42,197 bases of DNA from Escherichia phage altidsur, in the sequence record MN850568.1. The stretch is one strand, 5' to 3'. The notes below the pieces were generated by a model. It worked only from the letters and a program-made list of their open reading frames with translations, searched no databases and was not told where the DNA came from. Shown in pieces: positions 5,776 through 31,182 of this stretch (positions within the stretch are counted from its first letter, which is position 1; every line of letters begins with the position of its first letter). The position numbers were made by a program, and so were the translations under genes.

Positions 5776-5784
5776 GGAGAAACC

Positions 5785-8518: not shown

Positions 8519-8529
8519 GGAGAATCTTT

Positions 8530-8724: not shown

Positions 8725-8734
8725 GGAGTAGAGT

Positions 8735-10710: not shown

Positions 10711-10730
10711 TGCGTATCTAGCGATACTAT

Positions 10731-10752
10731 ATCACTATAGACACTTTCATAA
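10731..10752 (-). promoter_or_regulatory. Copy of the 22-bp phage promoter-like motif ATGAAAGTGTCTATAGTGATAT, inverted; + strand reads ATATCACTATAGACACTTTCAT
   Basis: Reverse complement is identical over 22 bp to 31211-31232; contains the CTATAG core reminiscent of the CACTATAG core of T7/SP6-type promoters. Confidence 0.45.
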
Positions 10753-10757
10753 TTATC

Positions 10758-10856
10758 TAATGATTACAGTAACTTATAACCTATCTGATAACGGTATTCT
10801 ATCCAGTGTTATGATTATCTAATCAAACTTTAATCCTAATGATTACAGTAACTTAT
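10758..10856. repeat. AT-rich direct repeats (20-bp TAATGATTACAGTAACTTAT at 10758-10777 and 10837-10856, plus duplicated ATTATCTAA)
   Basis: Exact 20-bp duplication 79 bp apart, read directly, immediately downstream of the A-depleted tract and the inverted promoter-like motif. Confidence 0.6.
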
Positions 10857-10877
10857 CACTTTTCTTGAAAATAATAC

Positions 10878-10907
10878 TTGCCAATCTGTTTTGGTTTATG
10901 CTGTAAT
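10878..10907 (+). promoter_or_regulatory. Host sigma70-type promoter candidate (TTGCCA-N18-TGTAAT)
   Basis: -35-like TTGCCA at 10878-10883 and the same TATGCTGTAAT -10 box as the next two promoters. Confidence 0.35.
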
Positions 10908-10984
10908 TCATCTCGCCGGACAACACAGCGTTAACGTGTTGGACGGTGTAGGACGGTAACACTGCTCTTTAACAATCTGGTGTG

Positions 10985-11013
10985 TTGACAAGGCAAGCTC
11001 ACTATGCTGTAAT
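10985..11013 (+). promoter_or_regulatory. Host sigma70-type early promoter (TTGACA-N17-TGTAAT)
   Basis: Perfect -35 TTGACA at 10985-10990, 17-nt spacer, TATGCTGTAAT box; one of three identically spaced copies upstream of the early region. Confidence 0.55.
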
Positions 11014-11121
11014 GCTTCCACGTCAGCCAGCAAGCTAAACAGTCATTGATAAAGACGTTAAAACACACGTAGGCAAGCTGGTACGGTTTAACTATCTCAG
11101 AACGGGCGCTGATTAAATCGG

Positions 11122-11150
11122 TTGACAGGATGAAATGAGTATGCTGTAAT
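11122..11150 (+). promoter_or_regulatory. Host sigma70-type early promoter (TTGACA-N17-TGTAAT)
   Basis: TTGACA at 11122-11127, 17-nt spacer, TATGCTGTAAT box at 11140-11150. Confidence 0.55.
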
Positions 11151-11201
11151 GCACACCAGATTGACAGGGCAGCAAGCCAGTCAGTCAGAAGTAAAAAGTA
11201 G

Positions 11202-11230
11202 TTGACACGCTGAATACGATGTGATGTAAT
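11202..11230 (+). promoter_or_regulatory. Host sigma70-type early promoter (TTGACA-N17-TGTAAT)
   Basis: TTGACA at 11202-11207, 17-nt spacer, GATGTAAT box at 11223-11230. Confidence 0.5.
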
Positions 11231-11687
11231 CAGCACCGAGTTGAAAGGTTGCAAAACAACCTGCTCTGAGTGAACGTAAACTGGCCACGTAGTGTCACGG
11301 TCTCATGGGTATCCGGCGCAGCTAGGAACTGGTGAGAGGCATCGCTGAAAAGCAACGGTATTGCAACAATGCTAACGCCGTAGGGGTAGTGCCTGATGCA
11401 AGGGAACGGAGAAGCGCGATAGACACAGCGCAGTATCAGTAAAATCCCAAACGTCTTATAAGGCGCGGAGTGAAGCGGGTAGGTAGGCAAGCTGGTAACG
11501 GTGAGCCGGACTGCTGGAGGACTCCTGAGAGTGGATGCAGACAATATCCACGGCGCGAAATGGGCGGGGCGATTTTTCAGGGTAGTGAATCCGACAAGCC
11601 AATCAATGCCACTTAGTGCAACATGTACGGCGCGTCACAATGGGTTCACTATCCACCTGAAAATAGCCAACAACTGGAGAAATAACT

Positions 11688-12080
11688 ATGTACCGTATCT
11701 ATGCAAGCGCATATCGTCAGGGCAACGCTGAATGTGTTAATCTGGCGCTTCATTGCAAGGCACTGCGAACGGTGCAGGATATGTTCGGAGTGGTTCCGGT
11801 CACACTGACAGGCAAGTTCGACAATGCGTACGAGTTAAGCATGGTCTTTCCTGTCGATGGAATCTACGAAATCAGGCAGGCTGTTAAGCTGTTCTGTAAA
11901 GCATTCGAACAGGACTGCATCATGGTAGTGACCAAAGATGATGATGCAATCTTCATGGATTCACCATATCCGGGCAAGCCTGCTGGCAAGTTCGTCAGCA
12001 AGACTGAGGCCGAAATGGAAGCCGGGCAGCACACCGCTTGGACTTACGATGGTGAACAATTTTGGGTAGTGGAGGCGTAA
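11688..12080 (+). CDS. Early hypothetical protein, 130 aa
   Basis: First ORF after the ~450-nt leader; GGAGA RBS 8 nt upstream of the ATG. Confidence 0.55.
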   Translation: MYRIYASAYRQGNAECVNLALHCKALRTVQDMFGVVPVTLTGKFDNAYELSMVFPVDGIYEIRQAVKLFCKAFEQDCIMVVTKDDDAIFMDSPYPGKPAGKFVSKTEAEMEAGQHTAWTYDGEQFWVVEA

Positions 12081-12081
12081 C

Positions 12082-12156
12082 ATGTTTACCGCACTGTGTG
12101 TAGTAGCGGCGGCCTGCTGGGTCATTGACCAGCGACTGAGCCGTCGCCGTGGCTGA
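12082..12156 (+). CDS. Tiny hydrophobic peptide (24 aa, MFTALCVVAAACWVIDQRLSRRRG)
   Basis: ATG 1 nt after the upstream stop, with a strong GGAGG RBS 6 nt upstream; hydrophobic N-terminus with basic tail; not in the ORF track because of length. Confidence 0.3.
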   Translation: MFTALCVVAAACWVIDQRLSRRRG

Positions 12157-12217
12157 TAGCCTATAGCGTCCTGCGGGGCGCTATGTGAAATCAACCAACC
12201 TGACAAGGGGTACTACC

Positions 12218-12748
12218 ATGACAACTGCAATCAAATACACTAGCTTCAAAGACGCTGCCGCTCTGGACAAGGCCATTGAGTCTACCGTCAAGAAGGCGCA
12301 CTCACTCCGTAGCGACATTCAGAACGTTGCGGTCGGCATCATCCTGCACGCTTACCATCACGGCGACTACACTCGTGCTGAATCCTTCGTGAATCAGCTC
12401 GGTCAGGGTATCCGTGGTAAGGCGCTGGTAGACTGGTTCGTCAAGTTCGGCGGCCTGATTATCGGTGAGAACGGCGGGAAACAGGGCTTCATTGGCTGGC
12501 AGGGCGCTGAGTATATCAAGGCGAACATTGACACGGCCAAAGCCACTATGTGGTGGAGCCTGAAACCTGAGCAGGCGTTCGAAGGTTTCGACCTGCAAGA
12601 TGCGCTCGAAAAGCTGATTGCCAAAGCTGAGAAGGCGCTGAACAAGGCGAACGAACTGCGCCACGAAGGGAAGGACGAAGACGCGAACAAGGTTGTCGTT
12701 CCGCAGAACGTGCTGGATGCACTGCGCAAGGCTAAACAAGCTGCGTGA
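12218..12748 (+). CDS. Early hypothetical protein, 176 aa (Lys/Ala-rich C-terminus)
   Basis: ORF with AAGGGG RBS before the internal ATG at 12218; the track ORF begins 33 nt earlier at 12185. Confidence 0.6.
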   Translation: MTTAIKYTSFKDAAALDKAIESTVKKAHSLRSDIQNVAVGIILHAYHHGDYTRAESFVNQLGQGIRGKALVDWFVKFGGLIIGENGGKQGFIGWQGAEYIKANIDTAKATMWWSLKPEQAFEGFDLQDALEKLIAKAEKALNKANELRHEGKDEDANKVVVPQNVLDALRKAKQAA

Positions 12749-12755
12749 TTACTGA

Positions 12756-12778
12756 CAGGCCATTCACTGAGTGGCCTG
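12756..12778 (+). promoter_or_regulatory. Intergenic RNA hairpin (CAGGCC-loop-GGCCTG); candidate RNase III/processing or attenuation site
   Basis: 6-bp perfect inverted repeat with 11-nt loop between two early genes. Confidence 0.35.
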
Positions 12779-12813
12779 AATTGTAACCACACATCAACCC
12801 AAAGGGGCATAGC

Positions 12814-13092
12814 ATGACTTTTAAAGCTGTAGACACTCGCACCAAACCGCTGGCACACTCTTTCCCGGCAGCACTGATGGGAGGCCAGCTCACTGGCACC
12901 ATCGTAGCGACCATTGACGACACTGGCCGCATCGACATCAAGGAAGGCGCGGAGAACCTGCCGCACTTTGCTCAGAGCCGTGACATTCTGGACGAGTCCG
13001 GCGACTTCCTGTGGCTGGTCGATGAAGACCAAGGCACCGAATGGGATGGCACCGTTCGCTGGGGTCGTCAGGAAGACTTCGAAGTGGCATAA
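12814..13092 (+). CDS. Small acidic early protein, 92 aa
   Basis: ORF preceded by a hairpin and AAAGGGG RBS; Asp/Glu-rich with acidic C-terminus (EDFEVA). Confidence 0.6.
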   Translation: MTFKAVDTRTKPLAHSFPAALMGGQLTGTIVATIDDTGRIDIKEGAENLPHFAQSRDILDESGDFLWLVDEDQGTEWDGTVRWGRQEDFEVA

Positions 13093-13106
13093 GCCGGGAT
13101 TGACTC

Positions 13107-13130
13107 AAGCCAGTGTCAAGGCGCTGGCTT
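13107..13130 (+). promoter_or_regulatory. Intergenic RNA hairpin (AAGCCAG-loop-CTGGCTT), part of the repeated hairpin + GGCAAT..TGCC module
   Basis: 7-bp perfect stem with 10-nt loop, followed by GGCAATTCTGCCCCAACC, RBS and ATG. Confidence 0.4.
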
Positions 13131-13168
13131 TATGGCAATTCTGCCCCAACCTATTCGGAGTATTATCC

Positions 13169-13450
13169 ATGACTATCAAAACTGTAACTGCATTCGTGAC
13201 CAAGAAAGCTGGCGAACTGTATGGCTTCGCTGTTTCCCTGAACGAAGGCCAGTACCTGCACCACGTTCGTGAAGAAGGCGAGCCGACTGAGGCCGTAGCC
13301 ATCCTCGAAACGTTGCAGGGTATCCCGCTGCCACACGAGTTCATCATCATGCTCGCTGAGCAGGACGAAGACGACCTGCGACTGCGCCACGGCGACGACC
13401 TGACGATTGAAGAAATCGGCACGTTCGAAGCAGAAGTAGACGACGAGTAA
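13169..13450 (+). CDS. Small acidic early protein, 93 aa
   Basis: Internal ATG of track ORF 12914..13450, chosen because the upstream part overlaps the preceding gene; GGAG RBS; acidic C-terminus (EAEVDDE). Confidence 0.6.
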   Translation: MTIKTVTAFVTKKAGELYGFAVSLNEGQYLHHVREEGEPTEAVAILETLQGIPLPHEFIIMLAEQDEDDLRLRHGDDLTIEEIGTFEAEVDDE

Positions 13451-13460
13451 GCGTTGTCCT

Positions 13461-13484
13461 GCTGCATCCTTGCGAGGGTGCAGC
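13461..13484 (+). promoter_or_regulatory. Intergenic RNA hairpin (GCTGCATCC-TTGCGA-GGGTGCAGC) of the repeated module
   Basis: 9-bp stem with one G-U wobble and loop TTGCGA, followed by GGCAATAATGCC box. Confidence 0.4.
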
Positions 13485-13521
13485 GTGGCAATAATGCCTT
13501 ACTCAATCTGAGGGTTTTAAT

Positions 13522-13863
13522 ATGAGCATCAAACTTGTAATCCTGACCAACATCGCAGCTTCCGCATTCGGCGCAGACGTACCGGAAGAAGCGCGTACTG
13601 CTGAGTGGGTGGCGTTCACCTCCGACGACGAGGGCTACCTGATTGCAGGCCGCAACCGCGACGGCGACTCTGCCGAGGACATCGTGGCGCACTTCGACGC
13701 TGACGAAGGCTTCGCTGGGTTCGCAGCTTCTGGCCTGCCGCTGGAACTGTTCGGCATGATGAACGGCGTGCCTTTCATCGACCGTGAGAAGCTGGGCGCA
13801 GACGTGTCTGTCACCGAGCTGAAAGTGTACGGCGAAGAAGATGACGTAGACTTCTCTGCGTGA
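13522..13863 (+). CDS. Small acidic early protein, 113 aa
   Basis: ORF after the conserved module (ACTCAATCTGAGGGTTTTAATATG); strongly Asp/Glu-rich. Confidence 0.6.
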   Translation: MSIKLVILTNIAASAFGADVPEEARTAEWVAFTSDDEGYLIAGRNRDGDSAEDIVAHFDADEGFAGFAASGLPLELFGMMNGVPFIDREKLGADVSVTELKVYGEEDDVDFSA

Positions 13864-13869
13864 TACCTT

Positions 13870-13893
13870 ACTGCCTCGTTGCGACGGGGCAGT
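13870..13893 (+). promoter_or_regulatory. Intergenic RNA hairpin (ACTGCCTCG-TTGCGA-CGGGGCAGT) of the repeated module
   Basis: 9-bp stem with one G-U wobble and the same TTGCGA loop as 13461-13484, followed by GGCAATCATGCC box. Confidence 0.4.
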
Positions 13894-13928
13894 GCGGCAA
13901 TCATGCCCCAACCTACTGAGGATTTAAT

Positions 13929-14204
13929 ATGTCCACTATCAATGTGTTTTCCCTGAACAACGGCGGTCTGGCTTTCATCGTTGGCGAGACTGTTGACAAT
14001 GCACCTTCACTGGGTGTGCAGCCGAAGCCGGACGCAAGCCATGACGAAGTGATTGGCGAAGTGCGCGAGGCGCTGGAAGACCTCGGCGGTATGCTGATTG
14101 CCATTCAGGGTGGCAAGCTGTCGGTTGAAAAGCTGAATGCACTGGAGCCTCGCTTCATCACCAGCTTTGAAGCTGACAACGTAGACGCGGCTGACTTCGA
14201 GTAA
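13929..14204 (+). CDS. Small acidic early protein, 91 aa
   Basis: ORF after the conserved module (CCAACCTACTGAGGATTTAATATG); acidic C-terminus. Confidence 0.6.
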   Translation: MSTINVFSLNNGGLAFIVGETVDNAPSLGVQPKPDASHDEVIGEVREALEDLGGMLIAIQGGKLSVEKLNALEPRFITSFEADNVDAADFE

Positions 14205-14239
14205 GCCGACCACTAACCCACCAGTAACAGGAGAACAAC

Positions 14240-14476
14240 ATGGCTAAGTTTGAACTGGTACGCTTCACCGACCCGAACGATGGTGAAGTAACCTATGCAC
14301 AATTCGCTGACGACCGCCAGCAGGTGGCAGTGTACACCAGCAAGACCTTTGCTTTCGAACAGTTCGGTGAGGAACTGCACTTTGACAGCGTGAGCTACGT
14401 GCTGCTGTCCGGTGGTGAGTACGCCGATGCAGTGCAGGCCGCACTGGATGAAGGCGAAGTCATCAAGACTGCGTGA
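14240..14476 (+). CDS. Small acidic early protein, 78 aa
   Basis: ORF with AGGAGA RBS; Asp/Glu-rich. Confidence 0.6.
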   Translation: MAKFELVRFTDPNDGEVTYAQFADDRQQVAVYTSKTFAFEQFGEELHFDSVSYVLLSGGEYADAVQAALDEGEVIKTA

Positions 14477-14483
14477 TTTCTGT

Positions 14484-14507
14484 CAGCCCATCCATAGCGG
14501 TGGGCTG
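14484..14507 (+). promoter_or_regulatory. Intergenic RNA hairpin (CAGCCCA-loop-TGGGCTG) of the repeated module
   Basis: 7-bp perfect stem with 10-nt loop, followed by GGCAATCATGCC box, RBS and ATG. Confidence 0.4.
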
Positions 14508-14544
14508 TAGGGCAATCATGCCACAACTAACTGAGGGTTTTACC

Positions 14545-14829
14545 ATGGCTAAAGTAACTGCATACTACTCCGCACAAGAGAAAGACATCGTGGCTGTTGT
14601 TGGTGACGGCTTCGAAGAAGGCAACTATGCGCTGTGCATTTCCGGCTGCAAAGAAGTACCGAAGCTGAACACGGTTGATGATGCTGTGGCTGCGCTGCCG
14701 TCGCTGCAAGCTGACATCGAACGCATGGGTGAGCTGGCCTTCCTGCTGCACGGTGGTTCGCTGAACGCTACTGCTTCGGTTGACATGCCTGCCAAGGGCT
14801 ACGAAGAAGTCGGTAGCTTCGAGGTCTAA
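14545..14829 (+). CDS. Small acidic early protein, 94 aa
   Basis: Internal ATG of track ORF 14473..14829, directly after the conserved module (ACTGAGGGTTTTACCATG). Confidence 0.6.
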   Translation: MAKVTAYYSAQEKDIVAVVGDGFEEGNYALCISGCKEVPKLNTVDDAVAALPSLQADIERMGELAFLLHGGSLNATASVDMPAKGYEEVGSFEV

Positions 14830-14831
14830 GC

Positions 14832-15167
14832 ATGGCGTTGCATCCGGTCAAGGTATTCCGTGGGCCTGACATTACGGATGGGCAAGACGTGGCGGTACTG
14901 CTGTACCGCCTGCCCGATGGTCAGGAAGGGCTGGTCGTCATCGACCAGATTGAAATCTTAGGGCAGCAGATGTTGACGAGTGAGGCGAGCGACGAGCAAA
15001 TCATCGAACGCTTCAAGGCGTACGCCGGGCGCAGGCCATTCATCATCGACCTGCTGAACGAGCTGCACTACAGCGCCGCGCCGCTGGCTATCCAGACGTG
15101 GCTCAAGATTCTCACTCCCATCTACGAGGGTGAGATGTATCTGTTTGGTATTGACAACGAGGAATAA
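14832..15167 (+). CDS. Early hypothetical protein, 111 aa
   Basis: Tightly packed ORF on the same strand, 2 nt after the upstream stop. Confidence 0.55.
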   Translation: MALHPVKVFRGPDITDGQDVAVLLYRLPDGQEGLVVIDQIEILGQQMLTSEASDEQIIERFKAYAGRRPFIIDLLNELHYSAAPLAIQTWLKILTPIYEGEMYLFGIDNEE

Positions 15168-15169
15168 TC

Positions 15170-15415
15170 ATGGGTAAGAAAGTAACTTTGAAAGTAGTTA
15201 AGCGCCGCCCCGGATTCACCGTGGGTACTGAGTACCCGGCAGTGCTGATTGCTGAGGGCGAGAATCTGGTCAAGGCATTCCCTAAGCTGGCCTCGGTGTA
15301 CGGCAAGGGCGCTGAGGATGTGGCAGGCTACGAAACTGTAGCCGTACTGGACGAGCGTGGCCATCCGTGTGACTTCTTCACGCAGGGCTATCACGACTGG
15401 TTCGAAATCGTTTAA
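15170..15415 (+). CDS. Small early protein, 81 aa; paralog-like to 15446..15688
   Basis: Shares an overall pattern and C-terminal H..x..EIV ending with the next ORF (HDWFEIV vs HTIEIVE). Confidence 0.6.
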   Translation: MGKKVTLKVVKRRPGFTVGTEYPAVLIAEGENLVKAFPKLASVYGKGAEDVAGYETVAVLDERGHPCDFFTQGYHDWFEIV

Positions 15416-15445
15416 CCAACCACCTAACCAAGAGAGGGTAACAAC

Positions 15446-15688
15446 ATGGCACGTTCTATTCTGATTCGCATCATCGGCCACACCGCACAGCCGTCCCATT
15501 TCTCCGGCGCAGTGCGTGACACTACCATCGGTAAAGAGTACGCCGCTCTGCTGGTTGAAGCTGGCGAAGAAATCCCGGACGGCTGGGAAACTGACGAGCA
15601 AGGCATCGCGTTTGTTGATGACGTGGGTGATGACTGCTTCGCATACAGCTCGGCGCACCTCGGACACACCATCGAAATCGTCGAGTGA
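15446..15688 (+). CDS. Small early protein, 80 aa; paralog-like to 15170..15415
   Basis: AGAGGG RBS; tandem arrangement with a similar C-terminus. Confidence 0.6.
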   Translation: MARSILIRIIGHTAQPSHFSGAVRDTTIGKEYAALLVEAGEEIPDGWETDEQGIAFVDDVGDDCFAYSSAHLGHTIEIVE

Positions 15689-15744
15689 TAAGCTACAGCC
15701 TCTGCTTGCGGGGGCTGTGTCATTATCAAACGAGCGAGGTGAGC

Positions 15745-15897
15745 ATGAGCGGCAGCACATACAATGCGCACGCCAACCAGATAAGCTACGCAGGGTACTG
15801 CGCACTGGGCGGGGCGAGCAACCCGAACCTAATGAGCCGGGCGGTGTATCTCGGCGGTCACTACATGCACCACGAATACTATTTAATCAGGGGGTAA
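15745..15897 (+). CDS. Small hypothetical protein, 50 aa
   Basis: Internal ATG with GAGGTGAGC RBS inside track ORF 15685..15897; preceded by a hairpin-like inverted repeat at about 15702-15725. Confidence 0.35.
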   Translation: MSGSTYNAHANQISYAGYCALGGASNPNLMSRAVYLGGHYMHHEYYLIRG

Positions 15898-15899
15898 CT

Positions 15900-16184
15900 A
15901 TGGTACTGGCATCTGAAAGTATTATCGAACAGGCTGGCGCAATCCGTGAAGCTGAGCATCTGCGTGGGGTAGCCGCAACGCTCGGTCACTGTGCTGGCAA
16001 CGGCGGTCTGCGTGGGCATTCAGTCGGCGGCGTATTTCCCTGCGTGATATTCTCGCGGGGCAACCCACATGAACACCTCGACTGGTGCTTCCTCGCACCG
16101 AACGGCGACGAGTTCGACGGCTTCGTAAGTTATGAAGATGCGTATGCAGCCGCGCAGGTATGGCTGGAACAACGAGAGGTGTGA
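15900..16184 (+). CDS. Early hypothetical protein, 94 aa
   Basis: Internal ATG of track ORF 15516..16184 with AGGGGG RBS; the upstream part of that ORF overlaps other genes out of frame. Confidence 0.5.
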   Translation: MVLASESIIEQAGAIREAEHLRGVAATLGHCAGNGGLRGHSVGGVFPCVIFSRGNPHEHLDWCFLAPNGDEFDGFVSYEDAYAAAQVWLEQREV

Positions 16185-16186
16185 GT

Positions 16187-16486
16187 ATGAGTAAGTGGAA
16201 AGATAACGTAGCCAAGCTACAGCGTTGGTTGGTCGATGCCTTTGGCGCACCGCCAGCCCCTGTGCATGACGACTCGCCGTTCAAGTACGTCGAGAAGAAA
16301 ACGCAGGAGCTTAAGCTGGGTGACTACGTGGTAGCATACGGCGGTTACATCCAGCGCATCGGTGCCGTGGAGTATGACGGTAGCCGACTGGTCGTAACCA
16401 AGTTAGGGCATGGGCCTGAGCGTGAGTGGCAGGCGTACGAAGATGACGAGTTCACCGTCCGTATTCTGAAAGAGGATAACAAATGA
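16187..16486 (+). CDS. Early hypothetical protein, 99 aa
   Basis: ATG 3 nt after the upstream stop, with GAGAGGTG RBS; ATGA coupling to the next gene. Confidence 0.5.
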   Translation: MSKWKDNVAKLQRWLVDAFGAPPAPVHDDSPFKYVEKKTQELKLGDYVVAYGGYIQRIGAVEYDGSRLVVTKLGHGPEREWQAYEDDEFTVRILKEDNK

Positions 16487-16995
16487 TTGACTTCAAAACT
16501 TTTAACCCGAAGCAGTTAGAAGTGATTAAGCTGCTGGCTGCACACATCGACAGCGAGCCTATGCTCAGTGAGCTGGTCGAGTTCAAGGGTGGCTACCTGC
16601 CGAAGCAAAGCTACATCGGCGCAGTGCGTGCCGGGCGCGAGGGTATGCTGGACATTGTTCCGGCCACTCGTACTGGTGCGCTGCTGGCACGCAACGTCAG
16701 CGTCATCATCGGCATGAACATGCGAGCTGCACAGGCAGCGGGTGACGAGGAGTTGCAGGTCGAGCTGCGTCTGGCTGGCAAGATGGCAGCGCAGGCTATG
16801 TCCTCGGTTGATATTGCTGAGAAGTATCACGACTGGTACATGGCGTGCTCCAATGTGCCGGGGGATATTAGTGAGACGGCGCTGGGTCTGCTGTTCGTGG
16901 GCGAGTTCATTGACACAACGATGCGTACCATCAAGGGCAACGTTGAGCAGATGATTCGTGCAATGCTGGAGTCGAAGAATGCAACGCGACACTAA
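16483..16995 (+). CDS. Hypothetical protein, 170 aa
   Basis: Translationally coupled ORF of ordinary composition. Confidence 0.6.
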   Translation: MIDFKTFNPKQLEVIKLLAAHIDSEPMLSELVEFKGGYLPKQSYIGAVRAGREGMLDIVPATRTGALLARNVSVIIGMNMRAAQAAGDEELQVELRLAGKMAAQAMSSVDIAEKYHDWYMACSNVPGDISETALGLLFVGEFIDTTMRTIKGNVEQMIRAMLESKNATRH

Positions 16996-17149
16996 GCTGG
17001 CCGTAGTCAAATCACCCACCGGATTATTCTGGTGGGTTGTTAATAAACTCCAGCCGAATAAACCTTTGGCTGTGCGTGATACAAAGTGGGAAGCCGAGAG
17101 TAAACTCGAAGACCTGCAACGCATAGTGCGTAATGCTATTCCGGCGTAG
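16979..17149 (+). CDS. Small hypothetical protein, 56 aa
   Basis: Internal ATG of track ORF 16958..17149, overlapping the upstream stop by 17 nt; weak support. Confidence 0.3.
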   Translation: MQRDTKLAVVKSPTGLFWWVVNKLQPNKPLAVRDTKWEAESKLEDLQRIVRNAIPA

Positions 17150-17183
17150 TCATCTACTCATGCCTGTTATTATTTAGCAGGCA

Positions 17184-17205
17184 TTATGAAGGTGTCTATA
17201 TTGGC
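17184..17205 (+). promoter_or_regulatory. Phage promoter-like motif copy (TTATGAAGGTGTCTATATTGG), preceded by hairpin 17160-17184
   Basis: Matches the 22-bp motif at 31211-31232 in 17 of 20 core positions; perfect 7-bp stem ATGCCTG/CAGGCAT immediately upstream; precedes the gene at 17223. Confidence 0.4.
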
Positions 17206-17222
17206 CAACGTGAGGATGAAAT

Positions 17223-17426
17223 ATGTTCCGAGTTATATTGTTGTTCCTGTTCCTCGTTATTATTTGGGGAGCTTTATGGATGGCGCTGGCAGTGTTCGCA
17301 CTGATACCAGCCATCGGTGAGTCGGCTACTTCTTCGGTGGGTACGCTGCTCGGTATGCTGGTAGGCTGGGGCTTGATGCACGTAAGCCTGAGCGTAGGTC
17401 AGAGCCGGAGGTGGATTAGATGGTAA
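17223..17426 (+). CDS. Small membrane protein (two predicted TM helices), 67 aa
   Basis: Hydrophobic segments LLFLFLVIIWGALWMALAVFALI and LLGMLVGWGLMHV; downstream of a promoter-like motif. Confidence 0.5.
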   Translation: MFRVILLFLFLVIIWGALWMALAVFALIPAIGESATSSVGTLLGMLVGWGLMHVSLSVGQSRRWIRW

Positions 17427-17860
17427 AGCCTAAGTACAAAATCGGTGACGAGATTGTAGGTCACAACGACACTGGCACCCGGTCAGGTAAGCTGGGTATC
17501 GTCGCATGGGTTAACCCTGACCGCCGAGCATGGGAGCGCAGTGGCGAGACCCGCTACATCGTGAGCTGGATTGGTGAGCGGCTGAATGCACAGCCGGACA
17601 TCAGCCACTACAAGTCTGATTGGCTGGAGGATAATACCAGTCTGGTCAGCCGCAAGCCGGAAGACCGGGGCCGCTACATGTGCTTGGTCGAAGGTAGCAA
17701 TGCACCGCCGAAGGTTGAGCACATCACTGAACTGGATGCGCGGGAAGAAGCTGAGCGTTTGGCTGAGCGCAACGGAGGTACTGTCCGTGTGCTGCAAGTT
17801 GTAGCCAGCGTGAAGATGAAGAAGAAGATTCAGTACATACCAGAGTGGGATAACGAATGA
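17420..17860 (+). CDS. Hypothetical protein, 146 aa
   Basis: Translationally coupled ORF upstream of the primase. Confidence 0.55.
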   Translation: MVKPKYKIGDEIVGHNDTGTRSGKLGIVAWVNPDRRAWERSGETRYIVSWIGERLNAQPDISHYKSDWLEDNTSLVSRKPEDRGRYMCLVEGSNAPPKVEHITELDAREEAERLAERNGGTVRVLQVVASVKMKKKIQYIPEWDNE

Positions 17861-18567
17861 TGAAATCAGTGAGCAACGACGAGTGGCCGGAGCTGGCGAA
17901 GCGTCTGCCAGTAGGACAAAAGCGAAGGACGTTTCACAGTTGCTCGCGGTCATTCAGTAAGACCAACTTTGAGTATGGCCGTGCGCCGGATTACATATGG
18001 TGCAAGTGCCACCGCTGTGGGTACAGTCGCAAGCATGACCTGACTCATGCTGTGTACGTGCCGCCAGCCGAGGTGCAGGTGAAGGTGCCGACTGATGTGG
18101 TGCCTATCACTGAGGTGATTGCGAAGCAGCCCCGCCTTCTCCTGCCTGTGCTGGAGCGCGAGAACCTGATGCCGCACCTGTCCATCCTGACTGCAAGCCC
18201 AACGTATGGCAGGCTGTATCTGCCGGACGACACGGGCAGCTATTGTGGTCTGGACTATACCGGGCGGCAGTTCATACCGTGGCGCTCACCGCACAAGCAT
18301 AGCTTGGCAATGAAGGTACACCCACGCGGCGATGCTGAAACGAATTGCCTGTGGGTTTACGGTGAGGTGGACGAGTATCTCCAGCAGGTACGGGACGGGG
18401 GCAACTGTGCTTTCGTACCGAACGTGGACGACACGACATTGCAGGCGCTGGTCAGTGTGACGCTGGCCTACGGCTACAACCTCGTGGTCATCTGCCACCA
18501 CCCAAGTGCTCAACGTATCCGCAGGGAACTGCGTGTGGTAGGGCGAGTGCAGATAGTAGGAGAGTGA
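17857..18567 (+). CDS. DNA primase-like protein with zinc-ribbon (CxxxC...CxxC), 236 aa
   Basis: Cys cluster CSRSF...CKCHRCG near the N-terminus; sits directly upstream of the helicase, like the split primase/helicase of phiKMV-type phages. Confidence 0.55.
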   Translation: MMKSVSNDEWPELAKRLPVGQKRRTFHSCSRSFSKTNFEYGRAPDYIWCKCHRCGYSRKHDLTHAVYVPPAEVQVKVPTDVVPITEVIAKQPRLLLPVLERENLMPHLSILTASPTYGRLYLPDDTGSYCGLDYTGRQFIPWRSPHKHSLAMKVHPRGDAETNCLWVYGEVDEYLQQVRDGGNCAFVPNVDDTTLQALVSVTLAYGYNLVVICHHPSAQRIRRELRVVGRVQIVGE

Positions 18568-18568
18568 T

Positions 18569-19834
18569 GTGCTTGACAAGCTGTTGTTAACGGTGATGCG
18601 CGAGCGCGGGAAGTACAACTCCCTGCGACACGCCATCCCGGAAGATACAATGAGCCAGACCACGGGCTATATGCTGCGTGCTTACGGCTCATACTTTGAC
18701 GCGTTCCCGGACAGTGACTTCATTGACATTGAGACACTGGGTACGCATGTTCGTTTGAAGACAGGCAGCACGCCTGAACAGATGGCAGCCTTCGATTCGT
18801 TGTGCGCTCAGCTCAAAGAGTACAAGCCGACGAAGGAACAGAAGGAGGGCATCCTTGACCAGCTCGTAGAGTTGGACACTGCTGGTCGTGCGAACCTGCT
18901 AATGCAGAGGTACGACAATGGTGAAGAACTGGATATTATCTATGAGCTTGGCCGTCTGGCTGAGGGCGCACGCCGCAGTCGGGGTCAATCATCCGTTACC
19001 GATTACGTCGATGACGATGTTGTGGACATTATTAATCGGACTGATGATGACCAAGGCTTTAAGTTCGGTCTCATGTGCCTGCAAGATAGCGTACGCGTAC
19101 TGCTTCCCGGCGACTCCGTTGCAATCGCTGCCCGACCTGACAGTGGGAAGACCAGCTTCATCGCGTTTAACCTTACGCGAATGGCGGCGACAGCAGCGAA
19201 GCTCTATCCGGGCAGACCAATCCTGTGGTTCAACAACGAAGGGCAGGGCATCAACATCATCCCGCGCATCTATCAGGCGGCGCTCAACTGTACGCTCCCG
19301 GAACTGAAAGAGCTGGGTGAGGACAGGAGCAAGCTGCACGCTGCGTATGCCAAGGCACTGGGTGCGCCAGCCAATGTGATTCGTGTGAAGGATATGCACG
19401 GTGCAACGCTGGCGAAAGCTGAGCAGGTTATCGAAGCGATGAACCCGTGCATTGTGGTGTGGGATATGCTTGCCAACTTCAAGCTGTCTGTGTCTGACCC
19501 GTCCAGTAACAAGGCGAGTCAGGTCGAGCAGCTATGGCAGGAGGTACGTGAGCTGGCTGTGCGTCACAACTTCGTGTCGCTGGCTACGGTTCAGGTATCT
19601 GCTGATGGTGCCGACGATATGTTCCCGGCACTGGATGCACTCAAGGATTCCAAGACTGGTATCCAAGGGGCGACTGATGTTATCGTGATGCTCGGCAGTG
19701 TGGATGACCCATCACTGGCAGCACGGCGCGGTGTCAGTACGCCGAAGAACAAACGCCAGATTGCTGGGCGTCCAAGCAACGTGCGGTCACAGGTACACTT
19801 CTTTGCCGACCGCTGCCAATACGAGGATATGTAA
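18569..19834 (+). CDS. DNA helicase (DnaB/T7 gp4 helicase-domain family), 421 aa
   Basis: Walker A (ARPDSGKTSF); Walker B-like IVVWDML and further downstream helicase-like segments; GTG start overlapping the upstream stop. Confidence 0.8.
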   Translation: MLDKLLLTVMRERGKYNSLRHAIPEDTMSQTTGYMLRAYGSYFDAFPDSDFIDIETLGTHVRLKTGSTPEQMAAFDSLCAQLKEYKPTKEQKEGILDQLVELDTAGRANLLMQRYDNGEELDIIYELGRLAEGARRSRGQSSVTDYVDDDVVDIINRTDDDQGFKFGLMCLQDSVRVLLPGDSVAIAARPDSGKTSFIAFNLTRMAATAAKLYPGRPILWFNNEGQGINIIPRIYQAALNCTLPELKELGEDRSKLHAAYAKALGAPANVIRVKDMHGATLAKAEQVIEAMNPCIVVWDMLANFKLSVSDPSSNKASQVEQLWQEVRELAVRHNFVSLATVQVSADGADDMFPALDALKDSKTGIQGATDVIVMLGSVDDPSLAARRGVSTPKNKRQIAGRPSNVRSQVHFFADRCQYEDM

Positions 19835-20196
19835 TGAGCCATTTAAAGGTAGGCGACCGAGTAGTAAACATTGATGCACGCAGTGTGCATTACGGTGCGA
19901 AGGGTACTGTGGTTGACATCAACGACAAGTACGTGAGCATTGACCGCGATGATGGTGCGCGTGGTTCTGGTATCAGCGGCTCGTGGACTGCACGCCATGC
20001 GTCGTGGGCGCGGATTGGTGACGCGCCGCATGTGGCAGCCACGCCGGAACCGGAGGCGACTGCCGAGGACTGGAGTTACGCTGAGGCTGAGCGTCTGTAC
20101 CAAGCGGCGTGCGATGCCATGTCAGTGTACAACCAGTACGTTGAGCGTAAGCCAACGACCAGCTACCTGCCCGGCAGCGTGCCGAGTAAGTGGTGA
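19834..20196 (+). CDS. Hypothetical protein, 120 aa
   Basis: TAATG-coupled ORF; N-terminal KVGDRVV...GTVVDI resembles a small beta-barrel fold. Confidence 0.5.
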   Translation: MSHLKVGDRVVNIDARSVHYGAKGTVVDINDKYVSIDRDDGARGSGISGSWTARHASWARIGDAPHVAATPEPEATAEDWSYAEAERLYQAACDAMSVYNQYVERKPTTSYLPGSVPSKW

Positions 20197-20360
20197 AGGG
20201 TCGCAGCTATCGCCGTTGCTCTTGCGGCGGCAGTCTGCTGGCTGAGCAGACCAAGGGCAAGGCCACTGGCAAGACGCTGGTGATTTACGAGTGTGAAAAG
20301 TGTGGAGTAAAGCAGTATGGAAGAACGCACGTATCGAGCGGCACCCTTAAACCAACGTGA
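20193..20360 (+). CDS. Zinc-ribbon mini-protein (55 aa, GTG start; CxC...CxxC)
   Basis: GTG overlapping the upstream TGA stop; four Cys arranged C-S-C ... C-E-K-C; not in the ORF track. Confidence 0.3.
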   Translation: MKGRSYRRCSCGGSLLAEQTKGKATGKTLVIYECEKCGVKQYGRTHVSSGTLKPT

Positions 20361-20508
20361 GCAAGCAACCATCCGGGCGCAGTACCGGAAGGGTGATGCG
20401 TTCCGTGGTGCTGAGGCGCTGGCCGAACGTTTCAATGTGCCGCCTGCTGATGTGGTGGCAGTGGTGAACTTCACTTATCGCAAGGGGAAACAGAAGCATG
20501 ATAAGTAA
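20317..20508 (+). CDS. Small basic hypothetical protein, 63 aa
   Basis: ORF in the gap before the nucleotidyltransferase-like gene; overlaps the zinc-ribbon ORF, so at most one reading may be correct here. Confidence 0.35.
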   Translation: MEERTYRAAPLNQREQATIRAQYRKGDAFRGAEALAERFNVPPADVVAVVNFTYRKGKQKHDK

Positions 20509-21181
20509 TGCAGAAGTCAAGCGCGTATGGGCAGAGGACATCTGCCGTCTGCTGCAATCACATGAGCTGAACTTTGTGGTTGCCGGGGGAGGGGCAAGGG
20601 ATACAGCGCTGGGTGTTGAGCCGAAGGACTATGACATCGTGGTCTTCGGTTGGGGTGGGGATGTAAGCCGCGTGGTCGGTAGATTGGAATGGTTGGACAC
20701 CAACCTCGAAGCGTATGCCAAGCAGCACAACCTGCCGTATGAGTACATGCCAAGCTACCACGACGCAGCCGAGGGCGGCGACTTCGGTTCCCGTCTGTAC
20801 GGTGTGTTCAAGCTCGGCCCGGTTGACATCATCATTAGTAAATGTGGCTGCTGGTCACAGGTGCTGAGCGAGTTCGACTTCAACCTGAACCAGTTCTACT
20901 TCCCGTCCAGTATCCCGCGATACTCCGGGCAGTACAGCCGTGACCCCGGTGAGTTCATGGCGTACCCGTACGAGCCGAAGCTAACAGCCGAGGACGTGCA
21001 GTGGTATCCGGCGCTGGCCAGTCTGGTTGAAAGCTACGACGACCTGCTGACTCTCCGTGTCTGCCGACCGGATGCCAGCCTGAGTCGTGTGGCCTACATG
21101 CTGGAGAAGCACGAGACACACCGCGAGCGCATCGAAGCATACGTCAATCGTATGCCAGACCATTTGGGTGGCACAGCATAG
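20498..21181 (+). CDS. Pol-beta-superfamily nucleotidyltransferase-like protein (CCA-adding/poly(A) polymerase head-domain motif), 227 aa
   Basis: Motif VAGGGARDTALGVEPKDYDIVVF fits the GGxVRD...DxD signature of class II nucleotidyltransferases, read by eye. Confidence 0.5.
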   Translation: MISNAEVKRVWAEDICRLLQSHELNFVVAGGGARDTALGVEPKDYDIVVFGWGGDVSRVVGRLEWLDTNLEAYAKQHNLPYEYMPSYHDAAEGGDFGSRLYGVFKLGPVDIIISKCGCWSQVLSEFDFNLNQFYFPSSIPRYSGQYSRDPGEFMAYPYEPKLTAEDVQWYPALASLVESYDDLLTLRVCRPDASLSRVAYMLEKHETHRERIEAYVNRMPDHLGGTA

Positions 21182-26990: not shown

Positions 26991-27211
26991 CACGAACCCT
27001 GTACCAAGAAGATGTGGTACAGCTTAAAGAAGATGGCCTCTCGATTGAGTGGGAGGCCAACACTCAGGTTGAGCTGTACAAAGATGGCACCGTCTGCATT
27101 TCTCAGGACGGTGAGGAAGTCTGGTTGCCTTGGGCGTACGTCCGAGACGTTATCTTTGCTCTTGAGGAAGCACACGATGCACATGAAAGACACCGTAGTA
27201 GTAGACCTTGA
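26987..27211 (+). CDS. Small hypothetical protein, 74 aa (GTG start)
   Basis: GTG overlapping the upstream TGA; overlaps the next gene by ~35 nt; weak. Confidence 0.35.
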   Translation: MTRTLYQEDVVQLKEDGLSIEWEANTQVELYKDGTVCISQDGEEVWLPWAYVRDVIFALEEAHDAHERHRSSRP

Positions 27212-27680
27212 TGGTACGCTGGCCGATGGCCGCTGGCGTTTGCACCTGCTGCCTCCACCGGAGCGTCGGCACCTTGACGAAGCGTGGGCCGAGTTCAACT
27301 TGGCTGGCGCTGACGACCCTGCGTTTCAGGATACGATTGACATTGTGAACGCTCTGGCCCTCACGTATCGCATTGTCATCCTGACTGGACGCGGGGCCGT
27401 GGCCCGTGAAGTAACAGAGCAGTGGCTCGACGAAGCTGGCGTTGTTTACGACAAGCTAATCATGAGAGAGATTGGTGACTGCCGTAAGGACACAGAGATG
27501 AAGCTATCCGCTCTGGAGGATATTGGTATCGAGAACATCGTGTGTGCTTTCGATGACCTGCCGCACATCGTGGACTTCATGCGAAGCCTCGGCATCACAG
27601 TGTATGAAGTGACCCGGTACGAGGACAACCATGAGTACGTCCACGCCAATGCCAAATACGATGGAGACAAAGATGAGTAA
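27177..27680 (+). CDS. HAD-superfamily phosphatase (polynucleotide 3'-phosphatase-like), ~167 aa
   Basis: HAD motif I VVVDLDGTLAD near the N-terminus and a late acidic motif (FDDLPH); internal ATG of track ORF 27012..27680. Confidence 0.6.
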   Translation: MHMKDTVVVDLDGTLADGRWRLHLLPPPERRHLDEAWAEFNLAGADDPAFQDTIDIVNALALTYRIVILTGRGAVAREVTEQWLDEAGVVYDKLIMREIGDCRKDTEMKLSALEDIGIENIVCAFDDLPHIVDFMRSLGITVYEVTRYEDNHEYVHANAKYDGDKDE

Positions 27681-28257
27681 ACGTGGTGACAAGTTCTGTC
27701 TGGATATTAACCGCGACTACCAAAGCCCACGGCTCAACGCTATGCGGGACAACGGCATCATCCTGACGTACGATGAACCCTATGATGTACCTAATGACAG
27801 CAGGGATTATTACACCTACGTTTGGGACGGCAGGACGGAACATCTGGTACTGGAGCCTTATGAGGTACAGCCAGTCCAGACTGCGTTCATTGAGAACGAC
27901 CCATATGACCCGGCCTCTGATGTTGAGGTGGCCGTGGCCATTGGTCAGGGTGTTGGTGGGCCGGGCGGTATGAAGTTCGACGGCGGCAAACCGCGCATGG
28001 CCCTGCTGTTCGACGGTTGCCCGAATGCACTGGAGGCTGTAGCCAGCGTGCTAACCTTCGGTGCTCAGAAGTACGCAGCTCACTCGTGGCAGACCGTACC
28101 GGAAGGTGAGGAACGCTACAAGTCAGCGCTGCTTCGTCACCTGACCGCAGTGGGTAAGGGTGAGGAGACTGACCCGGAATCCAATCTGCACCATCTGGCG
28201 CACGCTGCTTGCAATGCGCTGTTCATTCTGGAACTTGCTTTAAGGAAAACGAAATGA
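27673..28257 (+). CDS. Conserved phage protein resembling dATP/dGTP pyrophosphohydrolase-type nucleotide hydrolase domains, ~194 aa
   Basis: Segment KFDGGKPRMALL...FGAQKYAAHSWQ...RYKSALLRHL...ESNLHHLAHAACNALFILE; family assignment from memory only. ATG overlaps the upstream stop (ATGAGTAA). Confidence 0.5.
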   Translation: MSKRGDKFCLDINRDYQSPRLNAMRDNGIILTYDEPYDVPNDSRDYYTYVWDGRTEHLVLEPYEVQPVQTAFIENDPYDPASDVEVAVAIGQGVGGPGGMKFDGGKPRMALLFDGCPNALEAVASVLTFGAQKYAAHSWQTVPEGEERYKSALLRHLTAVGKGEETDPESNLHHLAHAACNALFILELALRKTK

Positions 28258-28749: not shown

Positions 28750-31182
28750 GTGGACTTACTTGCTGAGCAGATTCGACTTGAAGAAGAAGCACGAGCCAGA
28801 CACCGCGAGGGCTGGCTGGACAATATCAAAGAAGCCATGGCTAGTGGCCGGGCCGGGTCGGTGCCGTTGCTCCAGCGTATGATGGTAGAGGCGTATCCTC
28901 TTGTCGAAGCTGCGATGCAAGAAACCCTGAACGAAACGACCCGTGGGTACGGTGCGCAGTACCGGACGTACATGCGTGAGATTGGCACCAAGGCGTGTGC
29001 CTCTCTTGCACTGAGCATGGCGGTGTCCGGTGCTGCGTCGGAGCAGGCGGTGCTGAGTCTGCTTAAGAGTATGGGTAAAGCGCTGATGGCTGAGGTGGTG
29101 TATCTCCGGGCGAAGCAGACCGGGCCACAGCAGGCAGCGTACATGGAGCGCGTGAAGCAGGACGTTAAGAAGTCCCGGTCGAAGTCAGCCAACCACGTCT
29201 ACAACAAAGCGCGTGCGTCGGCGGCGAACGTTGGGGTCGAGATTGATGTGCTGCCGCAGCGTGCTCTGATTACCATTGGCAAGCTGATGATGAAATGCGT
29301 GGAGCCAACTGGGTTGGTGGCTACGATTCGCGTCGGCGGCAACCAACGTCAGCGCGGTACGGCACACTTCGCACTGCATGAGGATGTGCTGGCTACGATG
29401 AACGACTGGCTGGACATGCCGCGTGCTGATGGCATGTGCTGCCCACCGTTGATTATCCCACCGAAGCAGATTGCACCGAACGGTCGCAGCGGTATGTGGC
29501 ACTCGGATGGGCAGGCGGCGATGTACCGGGTAATGAGTCGCATGAACCACAAAGGGTATCGTGCATTGAACGTTGACCCGACCCCTGTTATAGAGCCGTG
29601 TATGATGCTCAGCAGCGTTCCGTACCGAATTAACCCAATGGTACTGGAGTTCCTGAGAACGAACCGTACAGGCGTTATGGGGCTGCCTGTGCCGCCTCGT
29701 GAGCCTAAGCTCCCATTCACCATCCCGGCTGGTGTCAGCTTCGCGCAGTACATCAGCAAGTTCCCACCAGAGATGCAGCAGCAGATGGATGCCGAGGCTC
29801 ATGAGTACAAGGTTAAGACTCGCTTGTATTACAATGAGTTGCGTAAGTTCACGTCGCAGATGCTGGCGCTGAATGGTGCAGTCAAAGAGGCAGAGCGCTA
29901 TGCGCATTATGACCGGGTATACCTCCCGACCTACGCTGATACACGGGGCCGAATTTATTATTCTTCGACCCTTAACCCTCAGTCCATCGACGCAGTGCGA
30001 GCGCTGCTCGAACTTGCTGAACCAGTGGCTCTCGGAAGTGAGGGGTTATTCTGGCTCAAGGTACATGTTGCGAATTGCTTCGGCTACGACGCGACAGACT
30101 TCGAAGACCGGGCGGCGTGGACGGACAAGACACTCCCCCGACTACGTGAGGCGTGCCGTCTTCCAGAGGCATTTGATTCGTTCTGGTCAGAGGCCGATAG
30201 CCCTATCAGCGCGTGGGCTGCATCTGTTGAACTCATTCGCGCTATCGACTCAGGAAATCCTGCGGCTTATCCCTGCCGAGTGGTTACACAATGGGACGCT
30301 ACCTGTTCAGGATTACAGCACCTCAGTGCGATGTTACGAGATGAGGTTGGAGGTGCTGCTGTCAATCTTATCGACAGCGTGGGAAGAAAAGCAGACATAT
30401 ATCTCAAGACGGCAGCAGCGGCGATGCAGGCTCTTGAAGAAAGTGAGGCAGCAGCGCCGACGCAAATGGGTACGTGGCTTGTTAGCATCGGCATCGTTCG
30501 GGCTATGGCCAAGAAGCCAGTGATGACCTACGTGTACGGGGCAACCCGGCATGGTATGGTTGATTACTACTGCCTGTATCTGCGTGAGAACCGGGTCAAG
30601 CTGCCGGACGGCAAGAGCCTGCTGGAGTGTGCGCAGTTCATCGCAGAGTTCATGTGGAACGCTATCCCTCGCGTTGTGCCGAAGGCGGCTGAGCTGATGG
30701 CATGGTTGCAGGCTATCGCAGTTGAGGCGGCAGCCAACGGCGAGTACGTGGAAATCATCGCACCGTCAGGGTTGCGGGTGGTTAACCTGTACCAAGCCAG
30801 TAAGGAGACGATGCTCAACAACATCAACCTCATGGGTATCCACAGCATTAAGCTGCGTGAGTATCTGGACAAGCCGGACAGCCGGAAGTGTGCTGCTGCG
30901 ATTGCTCCGAATTTCGTACACGCTATGGATGCCAGCCACATGATGAAGGTGCTGTGGGAGATGTGGAACAACGGGGTGTACATGGTATCCATCCATGACT
31001 CGTTCGGTGTTGCGGCGGCACATGCTGGTCTGCTGCATAAGGTCATTCGTGAAAAGTTCGTACAGATGTATGAGCAACATGACCCAATTCAACAGCTTGC
31101 GGTAAGATACAATGCTGTTGCACCAGAACGGGGTAATCTGGACATCCAGCTTGTGAAACAATCAAGCAAGTTTTTCTGCTAA
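28750..31182 (+). CDS. DNA-directed RNA polymerase, T7-like single-subunit, 810 aa
   Basis: Motif WDATCSGLQHLSAMLRD (compare T7 DGSCSGIQHFSAMLRD) and IHDSFG catalytic motif; GTG start; located directly upstream of the structural module. Confidence 0.9.
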   Translation: MDLLAEQIRLEEEARARHREGWLDNIKEAMASGRAGSVPLLQRMMVEAYPLVEAAMQETLNETTRGYGAQYRTYMREIGTKACASLALSMAVSGAASEQAVLSLLKSMGKALMAEVVYLRAKQTGPQQAAYMERVKQDVKKSRSKSANHVYNKARASAANVGVEIDVLPQRALITIGKLMMKCVEPTGLVATIRVGGNQRQRGTAHFALHEDVLATMNDWLDMPRADGMCCPPLIIPPKQIAPNGRSGMWHSDGQAAMYRVMSRMNHKGYRALNVDPTPVIEPCMMLSSVPYRINPMVLEFLRTNRTGVMGLPVPPREPKLPFTIPAGVSFAQYISKFPPEMQQQMDAEAHEYKVKTRLYYNELRKFTSQMLALNGAVKEAERYAHYDRVYLPTYADTRGRIYYSSTLNPQSIDAVRALLELAEPVALGSEGLFWLKVHVANCFGYDATDFEDRAAWTDKTLPRLREACRLPEAFDSFWSEADSPISAWAASVELIRAIDSGNPAAYPCRVVTQWDATCSGLQHLSAMLRDEVGGAAVNLIDSVGRKADIYLKTAAAAMQALEESEAAAPTQMGTWLVSIGIVRAMAKKPVMTYVYGATRHGMVDYYCLYLRENRVKLPDGKSLLECAQFIAEFMWNAIPRVVPKAAELMAWLQAIAVEAAANGEYVEIIAPSGLRVVNLYQASKETMLNNINLMGIHSIKLREYLDKPDSRKCAAAIAPNFVHAMDASHMMKVLWEMWNNGVYMVSIHDSFGVAAAHAGLLHKVIREKFVQMYEQHDPIQQLAVRYNAVAPERGNLDIQLVKQSSKFFC

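Follow-up and report, generated by a model that had tools for sequence, protein, structure and literature searches.

The window analysed here, the whole stretch of 42,197 nucleotides (nt) from Escherichia phage altidsur (MN850568.1), is an essentially complete podophage genome of the Bonnellvirus type (Autographivirales). Between its helicase and DNA polymerase genes lies an ATG-start open reading frame (ORF) of 227 amino acids (Table 1), which an initial annotation, made from the letters of the sequence, had read as a nucleotidyltransferase (NTase) gene of the polymerase beta (Pol-beta) type beside the DNA polymerase. The translation contains NFVVAGGGARDTALGVEPKDYDIVVF (AGGGARD...DYD), with GGxxRD at residues 30-35 (nt 20585-20602) and DxD at residues 44-46 (nt 20627-20635). 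The reading frame is under purifying selection. Compared with the related phages J8-65 and LF82-23, its ratio of non-synonymous to synonymous substitution rates (dN/dS) is 0.12-0.14, and third codon positions hold 63-83 of the 97-129 differences in the gene. Antisense ORFs on the other strand were treated as spurious, because they lie opposite a constrained frame and because in annotated relatives every listed gene has the same orientation.

Across the open segments of all six frames, the window contains the generic superfamily pattern hG[GS]x9-13[DE]h[DE]h twice, where shuffles give an expectation of 0.33; taken alone, this is weak evidence for an NTase. The class II form, GGxxRDx6-12DxD, occurs once, with 0.01 expected. 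Searches with the single sequence all stayed under threshold: in Pfam, PolyA_pol (PF01743) reached 14.6 bits against a cut-off of 23 and covered motif A only, the PcnB and CCA models of NCBIfam scored 11-18 bits, and phmmer found nothing in the PDB. These results would fit a motif that arose by chance, or a gene that has degenerated and lost its function. We nevertheless consider this explanation refuted to the point of a negligible probability, in view of the low dN/dS, the invariant catalytic residues described below, the profile and fold matches, and a full-length match (residues 6-224, E 1.6e-42) to PHROG 1614, "nucleotidyltransferase". The profile and fold evidence takes away doubt that the motif is real, and together with the PHROG match it confirms the Pol-beta-type assignment of the gene.

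In a profile search of 1.84 billion representative proteins with a cut-off of E<=1e-3, the small-NTase family comprised 379 clusters, nearly all of 150-230 amino acids, with only 2 representative clusters at E<1e-30. A family profile hidden Markov model (HMM) built from 106 of the 379 clusters scored 144 bits against the window. Searched against the PDB, the same profile identified 14 distinct sequences at E<1e-4, each of which is a class II enzyme of the CCA-adding, A-adding or poly(A) polymerase kind. The best match had an E-value of 4.2e-9, and E. coli poly(A) polymerase I (PAP I) was aligned from motif A through motif B. The PDB entries tabulated with the homology data are 4wby (10.5), 1miv (9.9), 3aql (9.9), 3h37 (9.2) and 3wfo (8.6), the values in brackets carrying no label. 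Structure prediction gave the alpha/beta NTase core fold of the Pol-beta-like superfamily, and the three superfamily patterns hG[GS], [DE]h[DE]h and h[DE]h are all present (A29-G30-G31, D44-Y-D46-I and V109-D110-I111). The initial annotation had called the motif typical of enzymes that add CCA and of poly(A) polymerases, and by profile and fold the nearest relatives are indeed enzymes of class II (CCA-adding, A-adding and poly(A) polymerase). The catalytic head of about 140 residues, including the motif A GGxxRD...DxD, is homologous to that of tRNA nucleotidyltransferases of class II and of the poly(A) polymerase from bacteria, and the protein is almost certainly a real class-II-like NTase.

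Conservation was counted across 151 homologues. G30, G31, R34, D44, D46 and R197 are invariant (151/151), D127 is found in 150 and D110 in 149; D35, P42, D110, F126, D127, N129 and N131 are each conserved in at least 90%. We infer that D110 is the third catalytic carboxylate (h[DE]h), and its equivalent was named in the catalytic pattern of Gp22 of Klebsiella phage fHe-Kpn01 (PMC7291057). D44, D46 and D110 are the expected metal-binding triad. Motif B is a variant. The HMM alignment places kFDfNiNqf opposite rRDFTINSL of E. coli PAP I, and the family signature FDxN[IL]NQ[FY] aligns with the class II motif B RRDhTINA, the core D-x-N-x-N matching. In none of 139 family members, the sample used for motif B and EDxxR counts, is RRD present; position -1 is F in 134 of them and position -2 is variable, so that both class II arginines are replaced. 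The ORF encodes a stand-alone NTase with an intact active site, maintained by selection.

Table 1. Coordinates of the NTase gene, its parts and the two adjoining genes in the window.
Feature	Position	Strand	Basis
Upstream ORF, 63 amino acids, basic	20317..20508	+	ORF list; phrog_31596
Complete minimal-nucleotidyltransferase ORF (stop codon included)	20498..21181	+	ORF list; PHROG 1614; dN/dS; identical mellemsur protein
Motif A, residues 26-47 (FVVAGGGARDTALGVEPKDYDI): GG loop, R34-D35, expected metal-binding D44 and D46	20573..20638	+	Alignment to class II motif A
Beta-strand VDIII, residues 109-113, with D110	20822..20836	+	149/151 conservation; strand in both AlphaFold2 (AF2) models
Variant motif B, residues 126-135 (FDFNLNQFYF)	20873..20902	+	HMM alignment to PAP I
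Clade-specific insertion, residues 136-185 (PSSIPRYSGQYSRDP...YPYEP...)	20903..21052	+	Alignments; profile of the predicted local distance difference test (pLDDT)
C-terminal segment, residues 186-218, helix 195-218 with R197 (nt 21086-21088) in SxxR context	21053..21151	+	R197 151/151; high-confidence helix
Family-A DNA polymerase, 821 amino acids	21192..23657	+	Annotated DNA polymerase I in aldrigsur; PF00476 in orthologous contigs

The protein shares its full length, its invariant residues and its genomic block with the members of PHROG 1614 (J8-65 gp17, LIMEzero gp22, gh-1 NP_813759, fHe-Kpn01 Gp22), and like them it is encoded in the middle block of a podophage whose RNA polymerase consists of a single subunit. 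It differs from PHROG 1614 members of 180-200 amino acids by an insertion of about 50 residues that the Bonnellvirus/LIMEzero clade adds after motif B; the insertion has pLDDT means of 64-95 in blocks of ten residues and is absent from the homologues of gh-1 and of Klebsiella and Vibrio phages. About 90 residues in all follow the head, ending in a helix with the invariant arginine. By eye, this helix (R-x-x-K...GW in many members) resembles the motif D helix of class II enzymes (EDxxR-x-x-R...GF), a correspondence that we do not claim. An HMM of the C-terminal segment gave negative scores with Cca, PAP I and three other PolyA_pol proteins, with no significant match to motif D or E.

Only the head aligns with class II enzymes. 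What is shared is motif A in the form GGxxRD...(P)KDxD, the strand with the third carboxylate and the motif B core DxT/NxN; the differences are a length of 227 against about 400-470 amino acids, xFD instead of RRD, and the lack of EDxxR and of the PolyA_pol_RNAbd domain. The neck, body and tail domains that class II CCA-adding enzymes have were not found in the protein. The family has a median of 59 residues after motif B, versus about 300 in Cca and PAP I, and its longer members carry uninformative extensions only, with no informative domain fusion. Class II CCA enzymes read CTP and ATP with EDxxR as an amino-acid template, and in selection experiments neither its D nor its R could be replaced (PMC11784652). 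No EDxxR follows motif B in the window protein and only two of the 139 family members have one; in the homologues from gh-1, RothJ and VP93 the equivalent region has been deleted. As the protein has neither this template nor a body and tail to measure tRNA, specific CCA cannot be built. Candidate residues for taking over the contacts of RRD and EDxxR are R99, K105 and R197. Judged by its sequence, the protein is a class-II-type head with a short helical tail and not a CCA-adding enzyme. The initial annotation therefore holds for a Pol-beta NTase with class II relatives, but not for a bona fide CCA-adding enzyme, since EDxxR, RRD, neck, body and tail are all lacking. This explicit failure as a CCA-adding enzyme is a new element of the present analysis.

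Some 6 kb downstream (27012-27680, + strand), the window encodes what relatives annotate as a "polynucleotide kinase". The product has the HAD phosphatase domain of PNKP alone (PF25109, E 1.2e-14), with no kinase domain, and is probably a polynucleotide 3'-phosphatase that stands alone. Translation probably begins within the ORF of 222 amino acids, because the J8-65 gene encodes 175.

The initial annotation had suggested that the NTase repairs tRNA 3' ends (CCA or A76) after damage by host nucleases, and in such a pathway it might act together with the phosphatase. The closest homologues are enzymes that add CCA or A, several phage records and papers label relatives "tRNA nucleotidyltransferase", and the phosphatase-only PNKP homologue parallels the annotated fusion of NTase and phosphohydrolase in E. 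coli Cca. We nevertheless regard repair as very unlikely. Not only are the intolerant D and R of the EDxxR template missing here and in nearly all of the family, as are body and tail, but the phage also has no tRNA genes (a tRNA scan of the window found none, and an Rfam scan of the window gave no match), and toxicity, reported for one family member (see below), is not expected of a repair enzyme. The phosphatase does not co-occur with the NTase in the contexts of gh-1, fHe-Kpn01, L017 and L018, and a joint pathway was rejected as this gene is missing from the neighbourhoods of several distant members.

The family is patchily distributed. Using tblastn, it was found in at least 264 phage records, 133 of them from Pseudomonas, 43 from Vibrio, 37 from Klebsiella and 16 from Escherichia phages, followed by Dickeya, Proteus, Yersinia, Pantoea and others. 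All contexts examined were T7/phiKMV-like podophages with the NTase gene within the middle (DNA-metabolism) block. Its position inside this block varies: directly before the DNA polymerase in Bonnellvirus, ECBP5 and L017, directly after it in fHe-Kpn01 and RothJ (in VP93 with one intervening gene), before endonuclease VII in L018, and between amidase and primase/helicase in gh-1. As the initial annotation had supposed, the gene lies outside the canonical T7 replication set: the family HMM found nothing in T7 nt 5000-21000, where the best score was 4.9 bits compared with 144 bits for the window. This gene has been described, as "tRNA nucleotidyltransferase-like", in 37 of 46 Pectobacterium Autographiviridae versus only 60 of more than 500 others, in a study whose tree was rooted on LIMEzero (PMC7693777), a phage that belongs to the clade of the window protein. 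Such an accessory gene with a patchy distribution is not unusual for Autographivirales.

The sequence feature itself was already known, with the protein in GenBank, annotated orthologues, a PHROG and two papers. Across the 2 kb tested, the window is 99.8% identical to Escherichia phage aldrigsur and 98.4% to mellemsur; for J8-65, Lidtsur, LF82-23 and further phages assigned to Bonnellvirus the identity is 79-88%. In mellemsur, an ORF annotated "hypothetical protein" encodes a product 100% identical to the NTase, and the orthologues in J8-65, Lidtsur (RefSeq) and LF82-23 (82-88% nucleotide identity) are annotated "nucleotidyltransferase".

In the window, the DNA polymerase gene starts 10 nt past the NTase stop codon, and a scan for promoters and terminators found no such site interrupting the NTase-polymerase gene cluster; the phage RNA polymerase lies at 28750-31182. 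On the other side, the stop codon of a small upstream ORF overlaps the NTase start by 11 nt, which makes translational coupling of the two likely. The product of this ORF is strongly basic (isoelectric point, pI, 10) and belongs to phrog_31596, of unknown function. It is not a family-wide partner of the NTase: the ORF is conserved in the Bonnellvirus/LIMEzero-like clade only, the same place being taken by an unrelated ORF of 90 amino acids in ECBP5-like phages. No partner ORF is conserved across clades, and the small ORFs up- and downstream are non-homologous.

The location might suggest a DNA-directed function linked to replication, for example that of a transferase of the terminal deoxynucleotidyl type, with primers, nicks or genome ends as its substrates. 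The gene is always in the replication/recombination block and often adjoins the DNA polymerase, and the family has lost the motif B arginines, which help class II enzymes to select ribonucleotides. Against this, the gene is absent from T7 and most relatives, so that replication does not need it, its place within the block is not fixed, non-replication accessory genes share the block (T7 gp2, gp5.5 and gp5.9, by annotation), and the class II relatives act on RNA. A function of this kind appears highly improbable.

We favor a different interpretation, namely that the protein adds nucleoside monophosphates (NMPs) to RNA 3' ends in an untemplated manner, as an accessory factor of host manipulation or counter-defence; we would put its probability at roughly 0.4. 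Two metal ions would be bound at D44, D46 and D110, and an NMP would be transferred from a nucleoside triphosphate (NTP) to a 3'-OH without a nucleic-acid template, as in the class II relatives. One or a few untemplated nucleotides would thereby be added to accessible RNA 3' ends, such as host tRNA acceptor ends or those of other RNAs. The role would be that of an accessory host-manipulation or counter-defence factor rather than of a replication component, because the gene is absent from T7, its record counts are host-biased, its position varies and its occurrence is uneven (PMC7693777).

Over-production of PAP I is toxic by tailing of tRNA 3' ends. Toxicity in E. coli has likewise been reported for the expression of Gp22 of fHe-Kpn01, in which three NTase patterns were noted (PMC7291057), and this supports a host-directed activity. 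Gp22 belongs to the small-NTase family according to BLASTP (30% identity, E 3e-13) and hhalign (99.7%).

Several observations weigh against untemplated RNA tailing. The toxicity was measured on this 30%-identical homologue and not on the window protein. The literature shows no substrate for any family member, and our literature searches found no biochemical characterisation of one. The protein has no recognisable RNA-binding domain. The family is strongly acidic, with a median pI of 4.9 versus 9.7 for PAP I, which argues mildly, but not decisively, against RNA binding by the protein on its own; the evidence is weak, since the polymerase, helicase and exonuclease of the phage share this acidity. 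Finally, the RRD arginines of class II motif B contact the NTP, and with these replaced the donor might not be a ribonucleoside triphosphate.

Toxic NTases that act on tRNA acceptor ends are known from MenT and AbiEii (DUF1814). These are of comparable size and stand-alone, the likeness in toxicity resting on Gp22, and the structural similarity to them is real, although below that to class II enzymes. They differ in that the small-NTase family matches no corresponding Pfam or PADLOC model and has no conserved antitoxin-like neighbour; the PADLOC scan returned nothing relevant. Another small protein, the S. pneumoniae "CCA-adding enzyme head domain" NP_344798.1 (PDB 2la3, whose title gives no function), is bacterial and structurally more distant than the full-length class II enzymes.

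A second gene of interest lies just past the phosphatase gene (27631-28257, + strand, with an overlap of about 50 nt with the preceding ORF). It encodes a MazG-like protein with a dATP/dGTP diphosphohydrolase N-terminal domain (PF18909, E 3.8e-33) and matches phrog_5033, oddly labelled "endolysin; inhibits RNA polymerase".

Instead of an RNA end, the acceptor could be the 3'-OH of a second nucleotide. The resulting oligonucleotide, linear or cyclic, would mimic immune or stress signals of the host or compete with them. The acidity of the family and its lack of a nucleic-acid-binding domain would be in line with such a synthase. A parallel exists in the small MNT-like NTases of phages BCP1 and Av05, phage-encoded Pol-beta proteins with a proposed anti-defence role, which make cGAMP and c-di-AMP that inhibit TIR-STING and have the MazG-like Atd1 encoded nearby (bioRxiv 10.1101/2022.06.09.495361); the window phage, too, has a MazG-like gene. 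However, the MNT-like proteins are a separate clade related to MNT and KNT, with the signature GS-x-AY[GAN]T-x4-SDxD as opposed to GGxARD-x8-DxD here. Direct reading of the window protein, GGGARDTALGVEPKDYD, found neither this signature nor the NP-x-h2[DE] motif. As the significant sequence homologues are all RNA 3'-end polymerases and the PADLOC cyclase models gave no match, we consider a nucleotide-product synthase quite unlikely.

A further link of the family is to Gad2. In precomputed Pfam annotations, several family members carry weak or faint matches to PF26128, "Gad2"; a literature text search for PF26128 returned no paper. Gad2, the anti-Gabija protein from SPbeta-like phages, is a predicted NTase of 400 amino acids, which SPbetaL7 needs to resist Gabija and which, in its SPbetaL7 version, is toxic on expression (bioRxiv 10.1101/2023.05.01.538930). 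The Pfam copy used left SPbetaL7 Gad2 itself unmatched, so the Gad2 model is apparently absent from it, and Gad2 was not located via the 100-116 kb region of phi3T. We used the SPbetaL7 protein encoded at 109563-110765 of OQ921347.1 (L014 1064-2263) and a 40-sequence alignment.

Comparing the small-NTase family with the Gad2 alignment, hhalign gave a score of 41.8 over 130 columns (P 1.9e-5, probability 77.6%), while 60 column-shuffled controls scored 14.3 +/- 2.9 with a maximum of 23.4. In the alignment, the two families are paired at IAGG...DxD, at the "FDF" motif B that lacks arginines and at the SxxR helix. It spans Gad2 residues 17-161 only, where the query ends, and the C-terminal half of Gad2 (220 residues) has no counterpart in the window protein, which does not share the architecture of about 400 amino acids. 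Gad2 also lacks the RD of GGxxRD and has an invariant Q where the small-NTase family has D110. With the family HMM, Gad2 members scored 9-29 bits versus 35-39 bits for class II enzymes; the Gad2 profile found no PDB sequence at E<=10. As far as alignments can tell, the similarity to Gad2 appears weak but real, a lead rather than membership, and it is a new element of the present analysis. The small-NTase family may link Gad2 to class II enzymes.

One might then expect Gad2-type counter-defence, in which NTase catalysis neutralises host immunity (Gabija or other) by way of a defence complex or ligand and not by bulk RNA tailing. An hhalign score far above the shuffled controls, the common derived features (register of IAGG...DxD, motif B without RR, SxxR helix), the precomputed PF26128 matches, the patchy and host-biased distribution, and the requirement for and toxicity of SPbetaL7 Gad2 would all fit. 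We consider it unlikely, though, given that the similarity is at superfamily level, with a modest hhalign probability and lower bit scores than class II enzymes reach, that half of Gad2 is unmatched, that Q stands in Gad2 for D110, and that the literature searched gives no Gad2 mechanism. A broader proposal would make the small podophage NTase an evolutionary and functional bridge between class II enzymes and Gad2: a head-only counter-defence enzyme disarming host immunity by tagging RNA or tRNA 3' ends or by a nucleotide product. Its altered pocket could consist of xFD in place of RRD and the SxxR helix in place of EDxxR. We see this proposal as rather doubtful.

Other genes of the window and of related sequences deserve mention. 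The first early gene (11688-12080, + strand) encodes an S-adenosylmethionine (SAM) lyase (PF23780, E 1e-27) of the T3 SAMase type, which is anti-restriction; its apparent equivalent, by size and position, in J8-65 and LF82-23 is annotated "SAM-dependent methyltransferase" and looks mis-annotated. Between helicase and NTase, an ORF of 120 amino acids (19834-20196, + strand) has a weak, sub-cut-off match to the Xrn1 SH3-like domain (PF18129, E 6e-5) and shares a conserved C-terminus with proteins like LIMEzero gp19. Relative to the window and J8-65, LF82-23 (L002 10382-10780) has an extra endonuclease gene between primase and helicase, probably for a homing endonuclease. In a bacterial metagenome contig of 169 kb (L009 4871-12620), three consecutive genes beside polA carry repeated PolyA_pol heads, listed once, three times and twice in products of 377, 1455 and 751 amino acids, with a weak match to the family profile.

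Together, these observations describe a family of several hundred head-only relatives of CCA enzymes, predicted to be catalytically intact, found only in T7-like phages and unevenly represented among host genera. Once the substrate is identified, it would become clear how small a part of the class II scaffold suffices for template-independent polymerisation; given the weak Gad2 link, a phage counter-defence mechanism might also come to light. If the bridge between class II enzymes and Gad2 were true, the family would offer the first biochemical handle on Gad2-type enzymes and a new minimal class of template-independent polymerase.

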